24,431 nucleotides of DNA from IMG/VR virus record IMGVR_UViG_3300045988_084596, positions 121,930 through 146,360 of that record, one strand, 5' to 3'. The stretch comes from a virus. Shown here one piece after another: positions 18,052 through 24,431 of the stretch (position 1 is its first letter; each line of letters opens with the position of its first letter). A program made the translations under genes and the position numbers. The notes under the pieces were generated by a model. It had not been told where the DNA came from, searched no databases, and was given only the letters and a program-made list of their open reading frames with translations.

Positions 18052-18070
18052 TATTGGTCTAAATAAAAAA

Positions 18071-18120
18071 ATCCTCCTTTCTTAACTTTAAAATAATTTG
18101 AGAAGTTAAGAAAGGAGGAT
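18071..18120. terminator. perfect 18-bp-stem hairpin, bidirectional terminator; its 3' arm contains the SD of the next gene
   Basis: atcctcctttcttaactt (18071-18088) pairs with aagttaagaaaggaggat (18103-18120). A-run upstream, T-run downstream. Confidence 0.6.
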
Positions 18121-18123
18121 TTT

Positions 18124-19956: not shown

Positions 19957-20862
19957 TTAGCATCCGCAACTATTCACGCTATAGCAACAGTTGGGATTTG
20001 GGACTACATATGCGGGAACTGGACAATCACGGCCTAATCTACGAATGATCTCAGAAGTCTGAGCTTCTTGATTGGCTGTAATAAAGGCGTTCTGAGCCTA
20101 CTGAGAAGCCGCTAAACGAAGAGCCTGATTCTCATTCTGCAAGTCATTGATTTTCTCCTGGCAGAGATAATCAAGAATTGCACGAGTTCCAGCGTTTTGA
20201 CTGTCAATAATATCACGAGTATTATTAGACATAGAAGTTTGAAGAGCGTTAACATTTGTTGCTATATTATAGTTAACGTCAGCAAAGCCTCTTTCAATCT
20301 GACGGCCTGTCTCGCAGCAACAATCTGCAATCTAGCGAGAAATAGCGTTTTGATTTGTGAGATTATCAAAGCTTGCTTGTTGAATTGCAGATCTTGTATC
20401 ACAGCAACAATTTGCTAATTGGGTAGCTAAAGCATTCTGACCTTGCATTAAAGCTACATTGGTATTATTGAAACCTTGCTGTGTTTGATAGCCTAACTGG
20501 CAAATAGCGCTATCAACACCATGGAAACCATTAGTAATAGAATTATTTAGAGCATAAGTACTATCACAAATTCCCTGATGAATAGCGGTAACGCCATTTT
20601 GGAGATTTTGTAATGCAAAACCTTCATTGATATCGGCACGAGTGGCCCATCCCTGGCCAGAAGGAGATCCGAATCCACTACCATTAGATCCAAAGCCTCC
20701 AAAACCGCCGAATCCATTTCCCCATCCAGCGAAACAGAATAGGAAGAGAATTATAATCCACCAGGCTCCTCCGTCATTCCACATTCCGCCGTTATTACGA
20801 TCGGTACCGCCAGTAGCTGCGGCAATATCTGCTAAAGAATACCCACTGTTAGAATTGAACAT
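19957..20862 (-). CDS. membrane-anchored Gly-rich, Cys-triplet repeat protein (301 aa); 2 in-frame TAG (rc 20332, 20098)
   Basis: Strong RBS AAAGGAGGAACTTAA then ATG 20862. TM segment AWWIIILFLFCFAGW. GFGGFGGFGSNGSGFG linker. Repeats carrying NCCCDTR and DCCCETGR. C-terminal CPVPAYVVPNPNCCYSVNSC. Ends TAA. Confidence 0.6.
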
Positions 20863-21131: not shown

Positions 21132-21560
21132 TTAAAAATCTAATTTTGGCTTTGGTTCCTACTATTGCGTCGTGGTCTATTTATTATTAGGCTGCGGCGC
21201 AATTTTTTCTTTTAATTGAGCAAGTACAGTTTCAAATTCTTCTCTAGTTACAAACTGAGCAGGATTGATAACTGGTTCGGTTGGCATATTTTTTAATTCA
21301 TAAATATTAAGTGTAGAAGTTCCATCTAAATTTATCTATTTTGTATATATTCTTTTATTCGCTAAATCAGGAAAGAAAAATATAGAACCATCAAAGTCAA
21401 TGCTAGTCGCTTTTACTTCTTCAATAGAAGAAACTGGACGACCTTTAATTCCAATCTAGGGCTATTCCACATATGGCATCCTCTGCTGCGGTACATAAGG
21501 GGTCGCCGCATATTGAGGTTGCTATTGTTGTGGCATATAGTATGGATAATTAACTGCCAT
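21132..21560 (-). CDS. hypothetical protein with Q/P/Y-rich N-terminus (142 aa); 7 in-frame TAG
   Basis: RBS AAAGGAGGTAAAACT then ATG 21560. Contains MPQQ(TAG)QPQ and QTTTQ(TAG)(TAG)EPKP, so TAGs are embedded in CAA/CAG glutamine runs. Ends TAA 21132-21134. Confidence 0.55.
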
Positions 21561-21604: not shown

Positions 21605-21660
21605 ATAAAATTTTGGCAAAGATAATTTTACTATTTTGCCAAAATTTTTGCCAATTTTAG
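21605..21660. promoter_or_regulatory. cluster of TTGGCAA/TTGCCAA motifs (inverted pair plus direct copy) in the late promoter region
   Basis: TTGGCAA at 21613-21619. TTGCCAA at 21636-21642 and 21648-21654. Lies between the holin terminator and the next - strand operon. Confidence 0.4.
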
Positions 21661-21668
21661 TATAAAAA

Positions 21669-22137: not shown

Positions 22138-22835
<698 letters not shown>

Positions 22836-22879: not shown

Positions 22880-23128
22880 TTACCAAGGATAATCTCTAGC
22901 AATCAAAACATCGCCTTCTGGCATTATAAATTTATATCTACCATCTGAATAAACATCATCAATAGAGCTTCCATCTTTTATTAAATATACATTATCTGAT
23001 ATTCCTGCACTCATAGGACTGCTGTAAACAATTTCCCCAGGGGTTGCTCTTACTGGATAGCCATATTGAAGGCTTGTTTTATCTATTATTGAATACTTTT
23101 CCGTCTGAAAAGTTTGGTTAATAATCAT
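22880..23128 (-). CDS. hypothetical protein (82 aa), no TAG
   Basis: RBS GGAGGTG then ATG 23128 (ATGA-coupled to the upstream gene). Ends TAA. Confidence 0.55.
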   Translation of the reverse strand: MIINQTFQTEKYSIIDKTSLQYGYPVRATPGEIVYSSPMSAGISDNVYLIKDGSSIDDVYSDGRYKFIMPEGDVLIARDYPW

Positions 23129-23523
23129 GTTCGCACCTCCTACAAAATTATATATATCTATATATCATTTTCTGGAATTTTTTGGGCTTTAAAAGTTAAA
23201 CTATTTTCTTGTTGATTTATACACTAAATGCCTGAATTATTATATATATCTATATCTTTTATTGTTGGAGTTGGACAAATTATCTATTTGCCCTCATCGC
23301 TCAATACTCCAATTATATTTACTGTTTGAGTATTATTAGACCAAGCTGATGAATATAGAGTTATCAATTTAATAATAGGTTTAAGTGCAGAATTTGCTAA
23401 TATAGTATTGAACTCCTTTTCAGTTCCAGTAAACCCTCCTTCTTTAGCTGTTTCATAAGCAGATTTGCCGTTTAATCCAGGCTACCCTATTCCAGCAACC
23501 TTTTTCCCATTTACTTTTATCAT
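23125..23523 (-). CDS. tail-fibre-associated protein with GKSAYE...GF.GTE motif (132 aa); 5 in-frame TAG
   Basis: RBS GGAGGTAGT then ATG 23523. GKSAYETAKEGGFTGTEKEF motif, common in phage fibre and BppU-type proteins. The frame reads through the apparent AT-repeat intergenic region to TGA (rc 23125-23127). Confidence 0.55.
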
Positions 23524-23545: not shown

Positions 23546-24184
23546 TTAATCAATATTACCTCCAGTAGAAGTAATTGTAGCGGGACCAATAATTTTATAT
23601 GCTATAACTTGATAATTATTATTTATTAATATAGCTCCCAAACTTTCATATGCAGACTGAGGAGTAATTTTAAGTCCTGAAGAAGAACCTGCATTTATAG
23701 TTATAATACTATTTTTTATCACTTTATAATTATTTTTCTACACTACCCATACTGACATTGGCGCATTTTCATATTCTATTATTACAGTACATCCACTTAT
23801 ACCCCTCAATGATTCAAATATAATATCCACCGTTTCTATAGGGGTTTCTGTTGTAATCTATCCTATCTTATCTGCCATAGTTGAAAAACTATCGGTCGCC
23901 GCAGTTTCTACTCCTTTGTCAGTGACTGCGGTCGCTATTAGGGTTTTGCCCTCACTGACATCGGTAAAAAGCTCATCAATAGCTGATTGAACATTAGTGG
24001 CTTTCATACTTGAAGTTTCATTATTATATTCTATTGATGATGCAGTAAGATTTTCATTATCTTCTTCATCAAATTCAATAGTATAAGGTCCTAACCCTAA
24101 TGTTTCTCCCATTTCTGCGCTACCGCCTCCTGGTACGGTAATAGCATTTTGGTTTTTAACCTATCCAGTTAAAATACATTCCAT
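23546..24184 (-). CDS. tail fibre / receptor-binding protein (212 aa); 3 in-frame TAG
   Basis: RBS AAAGGAGAAAATATCT then ATG 24184. 24 codons upstream of ORF-track start 24112, and continuing through TAG 23858 to TAA 23546-23548. NVQSAIDELFTDVSEGKTLIATAVTDKGVETAATDSFSTMADKI resembles a conserved phage tail-fibre segment. Confidence 0.6.
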
Positions 24185-24215
24185 AGATATTTTCTCCTTT
24201 CATCTAAAACCTTTA

Positions 24216-24390
24216 AAAAAGTACACTTTACTGAACTTGGTCAACTATATATAATTTATCTACTCTTTCTTTCATATATATTTGAAAAGAGTAAGATACT
24301 CACTTTTGGGAAAAGGGTTTCTTACCCTTTTCCCAATTTTTTGTTATCTAGACAGAAGAAGTATTTTTCCTGTTAAAAAGTGTACTTTTT
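24216..24390. promoter_or_regulatory. candidate invertible DNA switch: two dyad-symmetric recombinase-type sites in inverted orientation flanking 159 bp
   Basis: Left site aaaaagt-AC-acttt (24216-24229). Right site aaaaagt-GT-acttttt (24375-24390). Each has symmetric arms around a central dinucleotide, and the dinucleotides (AC versus GT) are complementary, as expected for inverted serine-recombinase crossover sites. Confidence 0.35.
24306..24342 (+). terminator. perfect 13-bp-stem palindrome plus T6; + strand-oriented intrinsic terminator inside the candidate switch
   Basis: ttgggaaaagggt (24306-24318) pairs with acccttttcccaa (24324-24336), then tttttt (24337-24342). In the present orientation it does not terminate - strand transcription. 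Confidence 0.4.
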
Positions 24391-24401
24391 CTCGGAAATT
24401 G

Positions 24402-24431
24402 TTAATGACTTTCTAAAAGACTGGAGCGAAG
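24402..24431 (-). CDS. 3' end of an upstream - strand gene (partial, 9 codons)
   Basis: Frame from the window edge ...LRSSLLESH, ending in TAA (rc 24402-24404). Confidence 0.3.
   Translation of the reverse strand, partial: LRSSLLESH

Follow-up and report, generated by a model that had tools for sequence, protein, structure and literature searches.

Several DNA inversion systems provide the background against which the locus described here can be read. In Salmonella, the small serine recombinase Hin acts on two inverted dyad sites, each with a nonpalindromic 2-bp core, and the orientation of a promoter decides expression; the H segment measures about 1 kb, holds hin itself, needs a Fis-bound enhancer and turns one operon ON or OFF. 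Phages Mu (Gin/G) and P1 (Cin/C) carry a serine invertase by their tail-fiber genes and alternate between two receptor-binding specificities by swapping 3′ coding parts of the fiber gene on a segment of 3 to 4 kb. Such swapping of fiber coding segments and hypermutation by a retroelement are the known routes to host-range variation in phages. In Campylobacter fetus, a single promoter on an invertible segment reportedly serves oppositely oriented sapA homologues with conserved 5′ ends, one of which is selected by the flip; the segment is said to span several kilobases, with long conserved 5′ gene regions as the substrate of a RecA-dependent reaction. Smaller elements are found in Bacteroides, where the serine invertase Mpi flips numerous promoter segments in trans, each about 200 bp long and with short inverted repeats, and in C. 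difficile, where the invertible element of cwpV, also of about 200 bp, has its promoter outside the switch, presents a terminator in one orientation only and depends on the tyrosine recombinase RecV. Finally, Sin and Bin3 (staphylococcal plasmids, Tn552) are serine recombinases of solved structure, of which Sin resolves directly repeated res sites with the help of an accessory site.

The locus analyzed here lies at the end of a 24,431-nucleotide stretch of viral DNA (IMG/VR record IMGVR_UViG_3300045988_084596, positions 121,930 to 146,360; hereafter the window, to which all coordinates refer unless a relative is named). The window reads sensibly only if TAG is taken as a sense codon: open reading frames of at least 100 codons add up to 16.5 kb with the standard code and to 25.9 kb with TAG read through, and in-frame TAG codons occur in the two genes flanking the switch (genes A and B; in gene A at codon 8, positions 24163 to 24161), in the genes for the invertase and the holin and in many plus-strand genes. 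No tRNA gene was found in the window. The virus is a TAG-recoded gut phage of roughly 100 to 150 kb, its host is probably a Firmicute, and it is common in human gut metagenomes, with one of its proteins indexed in 1,314 blocks of the assembly collection. BLAST against GenBank phages returned no more than three short matches, of 65 to 68%, and no annotated relative. Literature searches that covered the site sequence, phage invertible promoters and links of retroelements to invertible DNA turned up no description of this arrangement or of the site sequence; a 2026 paper speaks of "putative viral invertons" only (PMC13501310). Elsewhere in the window, where coding goes from the plus to the minus strand, a perfect 21-bp inverted repeat (AAAATCCTCCTTTCTTAACTT / AAGTTAAGAAAGGAGGATTTT, 14 bp between arms, 18068 to 18123) contains two back-to-back AGGAGG sequences resembling ribosome-binding sites (RBSs).

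The element itself consists of an exact 14-bp inverted repeat, AAAAAGTACACTTT at 24216 to 24229 and its reverse complement AAAGTGTACTTTTT at 24377 to 24390, and a 147-bp interior (24230 to 24376) between the arms, which together make 175 bp. Each arm is a dyad of the form AAAGT-NN-ACTTT around a nonpalindromic 2-bp center, AC on the left (24223 to 24224) and GT on the right (24382 to 24383), so that the two sites, whose centers are 159 bp apart, have opposite polarity, as expected of an inversion system. On the basis of the half-site profile of the wider family described below, the left site (core AAAAAGT-AC-ACTTT, predicted crossover at AC) would extend over about 26 bp, from 24211 to 24236; its inverted counterpart on the right (core AAAGT-GT-ACTTTTT, centered on GT) spans 24370 to 24395. 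This is the only site pair in the 24 kb examined. A sequence-only reading of the window had described both dyad sites, with their spacing, inverted orientation and AC/GT centers, all of which we confirmed, and had cautioned that the 14-bp match might have arisen by chance in AT-rich DNA. That caution proved justified for the bare repeat but not for the dyad: a perfect inverted repeat of at least 14 bp with a spacing of 30 to 300 bp was present in 12% of dinucleotide shuffles of the window, whereas the 12-mer AAAGTNNACTTT occurs twice in the window, both times at the sites (0.12 occurrences expected), a count reached in none of 100 shuffles. The 14-bp repeat is by itself not significant, and it is the dyad structure and the comparative data that carry the case. 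Among relatives whose interiors diverge by up to 20%, the sites are invariant.

Homologous loci were collected by site-pair pattern scans of IMG/VR, metagenomes and genomes, and more were added via protein look-ups. In one of them, L013 (OGGG01000034.1, a 148-kb contig), the 175-bp element is flipped with respect to L027 and L022, while the flanks and the interior allele are unchanged. L013 and L027 are 97.8% identical over 3.8 kb on one strand, with the 175-bp element 100% identical on the other, and comparison with L022 gave the same result. In both comparisons, the breakpoints fall inside the 14-bp sites, the left and the right alike, and the interior is flipped relative to both flanks. Since the 14-bp repeats are shorter than assembler k-mers, misassembly seems unlikely. 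The interior points toward gene A in L013 and toward gene B in about 35 related loci and the window itself, which makes the A-pointing orientation one of approximately 37 homologous loci and thus rare as an assembly consensus; 10 further assemblies, reached via an 82-amino-acid (82-aa) open reading frame of the A operon, were all B pointing. The junction that marks the A-pointing orientation had no match in IMG/VR; the IMG/VR pattern scans were not exhaustive, as they missed L065, a locus with both sites. The search for both orientations that the sequence-only reading had recommended thus found both in public assemblies, and its view of an invertible segment with sites built like hix and gix is borne out. 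We are highly confident, from these comparisons of sequences, that the segment inverts by site-specific recombination. Together, the 5′ ends of genes A and B make up a 28-nucleotide inverted repeat (82%), which we also considered as the recombination substrate and ruled out, the breakpoints in L013 being at the 14-bp sites.

The same sites are found well beyond this phage. A scan for pairs of the 12-bp site with a spacing of 135 to 165 bp yielded 44 metagenome loci, 4 viral loci and 12 genome matches, in the last of which all named taxa are Firmicutes, including Oscillospiraceae, Lachnospiraceae, Anaerotignum, Succiniclasticum, Megasphaera and Selenomonadales. At no fewer than 20 loci with unrelated interiors and flanks, a serine recombinase 41 to 60% identical to that of the window is encoded some 20 to 200 bp from the pair. 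Both orientations occur in three more families with these sites (L019/L028, L011/L051 and L045/L059), in each of which the flanks and the switch aligned on opposite strands in blastn. When the four half-sites were compared across 30 families, conservation was seen past the selected core (A at −6, a pyrimidine at −9 and T at −11) and reached position −12, which indicates half-sites of 12 to 13 bp, as expected for small serine recombinases. The interiors of other members contain promoters matching 11 or 12 of the 12 consensus positions. Seen as a group, loci L005 to L060 (besides the three pairs just named, for instance, L010, L014 and L042) represent widespread Firmicutes invertons of 159 to 189 bp, with sites AAAGTACACTTT / AAAGTGTACTTT, an adjoining Sin/Bin-like serine recombinase and strong internal promoters; they adjoin genes for large secreted or surface proteins and glycosyltransferase-like genes, and several of the families show both orientations. 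Invertons with the AAAGT-AC-ACTTT core and Sin/Bin-like invertases would form a large and apparently uncharacterized family. Related bacterial switches may already be included, without characterization, in general catalogues of Firmicutes invertons.

A candidate for the enzyme is encoded on the minus strand at 22138 to 22761 (GTG start), 1.4 kb from the switch. The protein is a small serine recombinase, with an N-terminal resolvase catalytic domain that includes the nucleophilic serine (catalytic motif YARVSSRDQ) and a C-terminal DNA-binding region, and matches phrog_125 (DNA invertase; E = 2e-52) and PF00239 (E = 2e-30). Its best relatives of solved structure are Sin and Bin3 (E = 2e-35, aligned over residues 2 to 191), with respect to which the YARVSS and SIDRLGRN motifs and the catalytic serine are conserved; the gamma-delta and Tn3 resolvases scored about 1e-22, and Gin, the sole Hin/Gin-type invertase among the solved structures matched, scored far worse than Sin/Bin3, at 3e-15 to 5e-15. 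The "Hin-type enzyme" of the sequence-only reading is therefore a serine recombinase, as stated, but the type was loosely chosen (2e-35 for Sin/Bin3 versus 3e-15 for Gin), and the protein, which scores 43.3 bits against a cut-off of 272 for the Mpi family (NF009949, NCBIfam), is not a member of that family. No other recombinase was found in the part of the window examined (18.5 to 24.4 kb) or in the related loci. Judging from proximity and co-occurrence, the serine recombinase of the window is likely the enzyme of the inversion. Site I of Sin may share a GT-AC-AC core, a point to which we give no weight as evidence. A palindromic motif, TTGCCAAAATTTTGGCAA, is present at 21607 to 21661 and 22806 to 22831 (26-nucleotide arms, 85% complementary, 1,144 bp apart), that is, upstream of a gene starting near 21560 and upstream of the invertase gene; in L067, too, it precedes the invertase gene, and it may represent an operator or promoter element common to both genes.

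Inside the interior, a sigma-70/sigma-A-like promoter (TTTACT-17-TATAAT; 10 of 12 consensus positions, conserved in relatives) is predicted on the plus strand at 24227 to 24255, upstream of a hairpin. It is the sole promoter-like site in a 600-bp region, where none was found outside the segment, and a search of the interior's opposite strand brought up no second promoter. The −35 hexamer extends into the inner half of the left site and, because the sites are perfect inverted repeats, would be rebuilt at the other end after inversion. In the distant relatives L053 and L067, the promoter hexamers drift (TTAACG...GATAAT). The −10 region of these two loci (L053, 6985 to 7010; L067, reverse strand) is part of a 21-bp perfect palindrome (CCATGGATAATTTATCCATGG or CCACAGATAATTTATCTGTGG) with a T run behind it. 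The window allele has no such palindrome, which could serve as an operator or form a further terminator-like hairpin. In L067 and its companion L068, the promoter-proximal site has a mutated inner half, with ACATT replacing ACTTT.

The hairpin (TTGGGAAAAGGGT/ACCCTTTTCCCAA, 24306 to 24342, plus strand) resembles an intrinsic terminator, with a 13-bp stem, a 5-nucleotide loop and a run of six T residues, and lies about 45 nucleotides downstream of the predicted transcription start. This perfect hairpin had been described correctly in the sequence-only reading, and it folds well: the RNA from 24262 to 24345, which includes it, has a predicted energy of −27.9 kcal/mol and a z score of −5.9. It is strand specific, since on the minus strand a run of six A residues precedes the stem and no T run follows it. 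With both elements on one strand and the hairpin downstream of the promoter, the two flip as one unit, which in the window is aimed right, at gene B. In L053, from a rabbit-gut Clostridia MAG and with a switch 80% identical to that of the window, all 13 stem pairs persist by way of a compensatory change and two wobble changes; L067 and L068 retain the hairpin with one A-T pair gone from both arms. Just upstream, a leader element (GAAAAGAGTAAGATACTCAC, 24284 to 24303, plus strand) is able to base-pair with the 3′ hairpin arm and is a possible antiterminator. It is conserved in every relative, save for one A lost in L067 and L068 that matches the A-T pair lost from both hairpin arms there, and in L053 its pairing with the 3′ arm becomes perfect. 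Taken together, the hairpin and the leader element resemble a choice between terminator and antiterminator and, as far as the sequence allows us to tell, most likely constitute a regulated attenuator. A tRNA scan and Rfam searches of the window and the switch region returned nothing at or near gathering scores, and on that basis we ruled out the hairpin unit as a known RNA family or a suppressor tRNA.

The switch is situated within a 325-bp intergenic region between two divergent genes, each with an RBS. On the left, gene A (23546 to 24184, minus strand) encodes a fiber-like protein of 212 aa (phrog_26419, tail fiber; E = 9e-11) and reads in-frame TAG codons as sense; the start assigned to it in the sequence-only reading, at 24184 on the minus strand, holds, with an ATG at that position and an RBS at 24194 to 24199. 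It is followed on the same strand by two small genes, one for a 132-aa protein (23125 to 23523) that has the tail-fiber-type motif GKSAYE..GF.GTE.EF and is present as a 132-aa gene in public assemblies too and the other an 82-aa open reading frame (22880 to 23128), then by the serine recombinase gene (22761 to 22138) and the holin gene. The A side is a hot spot of exchange (23546 to 24184 compared with L003, L015, L037 and L053), the B side being conserved: in these four loci, the first nine or so codons of gene A are kept, the fiber bodies are unrelated and the number of downstream genes varies. A more distant phage relative (L067, 1790 to 2681; L068, 5690 to 6582) has no A operon, and its invertase gene directly adjoins the switch on the A side, so a toggle between two fibers is not universal in the lineage. 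Further along, adjoining the lysis region, the minus-strand gene at 19957 to 20862 encodes a 301-aa protein (phrog_16490) whose N-terminal region is Gly-rich and which has repeated CCC/CC motifs.

On the right, the claim that the site abuts the stop (24402) of an upstream gene did not survive inspection of contigs extending past the window end, which show the leader of a divergent gene instead. The right flank of the switch is the 120-bp leader of gene B, the first part of which is in the window (24391 to 24431, plus strand). Gene B itself, past the window end and seen in longer related contigs, is on the plus strand. Its RBS is GAAGGAGG, its start codon is a TTG (window-equivalent position 24510), and its 585-aa product has Big_3 and DUF6273 domains. 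Gene B opens a diversity-generating retroelement (DGR) cassette, in which this target gene is followed by an avd-like gene, a template repeat and the gene for a reverse transcriptase (L002, 7465 to 11455, minus strand; window equivalent, about 24510 to 28500). The reverse transcriptase matches RVT_1 (E = 1e-16) and has a YMDD motif, and the template and variable repeats agree at 85 of 100 positions; since all 15 mismatches are at template adenines, gene B is the target of this DGR. The leader of gene B is strongly structured (L002, 11456 to 11580, minus strand; window equivalent, 24385 to 24509; z score of the whole leader, −7.1), and a 12-bp hairpin, CCTTCTATCTAG...CTAGATAGAAGG, covers part of RBS GAAGGAGG.

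The N termini of the two gene products are alike. Gene A starts with MECILTGq (variants MNCILqGq, MKVILQGq and MIKAILQGq) and gene B with (M)PKCILAEq...GGGS, and both have a TAG at codon 8 or 9. The common N-terminal motif suggests that A and B are alternative parts for the same virion position, and the early TAG could gate their translation via a suppressor tRNA.

We propose the following model, which builds on the sites, their inversion in nature, their link to the recombinase, the divergent genes and the retroelement, all of them directly established. The small serine recombinase encoded 1.4 kb away would bind both inverted sites, cut at the central AC/GT dinucleotide and flip the interior, in which a single promoter would precede a structured leader and its terminator-like hairpin. 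The switch being located between divergent genes, each flip would redirect one transcription unit: aimed left, it would drive the fiber-A operon (gene A and the two small genes); aimed right, it would drive gene B, whose product, of the receptor-binding type and with Ig-like domains, is hypermutated by the retroelement. A and B would then be alternatives for one virion position, and the hairpin, moving with the promoter, may act as an attenuator that links the selected gene to a further signal, such as late antitermination. We consider this full model, a promoter toggle between two receptor-binding modules, probable, while inferring from sequence that the promoter is active and affects expression, which enzyme acts in this phage, what the hairpin does and which part A and B play in the virion. 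That gene A has no visible promoter in the B-pointing state is expected under the model; against it, a terminator-like hairpin right after the promoter would, at face value, halt transcription before either gene.

A cwpV-like arrangement is one of two unlikely alternatives. A promoter outside the segment would then be read through the switch, with fiber A ON in the orientation of the window and OFF after inversion, and this is how the sequence-only reading had pictured it, with the terminator gating read-through from an upstream co-directional gene. The inversion is real, and the hairpin with its T run is strand specific and kept through compensatory changes, as a terminator switch would have it. 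No such upstream gene exists, however, in this divergent intergenic region, where the right flank is the leader of gene B; between gene B and the right site, the A-coding strand showed no promoter-like site; and with the internal promoter upstream of the hairpin on the same strand, the terminator is never parted from its promoter. Having neither an external promoter nor an upstream gene to point to, we favor the promoter toggle, and the fallback of the earlier reading, that inversion might swap a promoter, turns out to be the better one, the sole promoter-like site lying inside the segment and flipping with the hairpin.

Just as doubtful is the alternative that the segment inverts but that its output is an RNA of about 80 nucleotides ended at the hairpin, or the control of the recombinase or lysis genes, the choice between A and B being secondary or absent. 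It would account for a strong terminator-like hairpin so soon after the promoter, for the invertase gene directly on the A side in L067 and L068 and for the compact bacterial cassettes, which put the invertase beside the switch. However, a unit wholly inside the segment would yield the same RNA either way and leave inversion without a purpose, no Rfam family was matched, and the conserved divergent pair with common N termini points to a choice between A and B. Far less probable still is the notion that the dyads are operators for a dimeric regulator rather than recombination sites; while each is near-palindromic and the left one overlaps the −35 hexamer, they contain the breakpoints of inversions in the phage and in three other families and co-occur with a serine recombinase, not with a particular regulator (binding of the recombinase could, as a side effect, repress the promoter). 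Finally, we dismiss as most improbable a chance repeat in AT-rich DNA, with L013 as an assembly artifact or one-off illegitimate event: repeats this long are found in 12% of shuffled windows and a single inverted assembly was found in the phage group, but the sites are invariant beside interiors diverging by up to 20%, recur with similar spacing next to a homologous recombinase at dozens of unrelated loci and have been inverted independently in three other families.

Returning to the promoter toggle, we speculate, with about even confidence, that it forms part of a bet-hedging stack. The invertase-driven promoter flip would pick either the fixed, exchangeable operon A or the hypermutated gene B, the attenuator would add timing, and the switch would come from a Firmicutes inverton family that phages borrowed from bacterial surface phase variation. 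Besides the two known routes to host-range variation in phages, the locus suggests a third one and a combination: a tiny promoter flip that chooses between complete receptor-binding modules, one of which is hypermutable. Such a switch could shape the host range of a prevalent, uncultured, TAG-recoded phage. Moreover, the analysis defines a family of recombination sites and invertases that is widespread in gut Firmicutes, with coordinates and natural ON/OFF examples.

How, then, does the phage switch relate to the described systems? It resembles Hin in that a serine invertase flips a promoter and in the style of the half-sites, with an A-tract beside the core. It differs from the H segment in being a 175-bp, noncoding element with genes on both sides, in having its enzyme encoded outside and closer to Sin/Bin3 than to Gin and in belonging to hosts that appear to be Firmicutes, which are not known to have Fis. 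With Mu and P1, it has in common a phage-encoded serine invertase by tail-fiber genes and two alternative receptor-binding specificities; nevertheless, the segment contains no 3′ fiber coding parts, as 147 noncoding bp between two start codons are flipped and the choice, being one between two complete divergent genes, would be made at transcription. The closest likeness in layout, one promoter between two divergent related genes, is to C. fetus sapA, from which the phage locus is set apart by breakpoints in 14-bp sites and, likely, a dedicated serine recombinase. Mpi of Bacteroides likewise combines a serine invertase with promoter segments of similar size and short inverted repeats, but its site sequence, its host phylum and its action in trans on many loci are different. 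Size, Firmicute context and a terminator-like structure in the 5′ leader recall cwpV; in the phage, however, the promoter-like site lies inside the switch, no outside promoter reads through it into a gene, and the recombinase is of the serine type. Sin and Bin3, finally, are the closest solved relatives of the enzyme, yet the phage sites are inverted rather than directly repeated, inversion products were observed, and no accessory site was identified. The phage switch is therefore different from the known systems in its size, in the lineage of its enzyme, in having genes on both sides and in its pairing with a retroelement.
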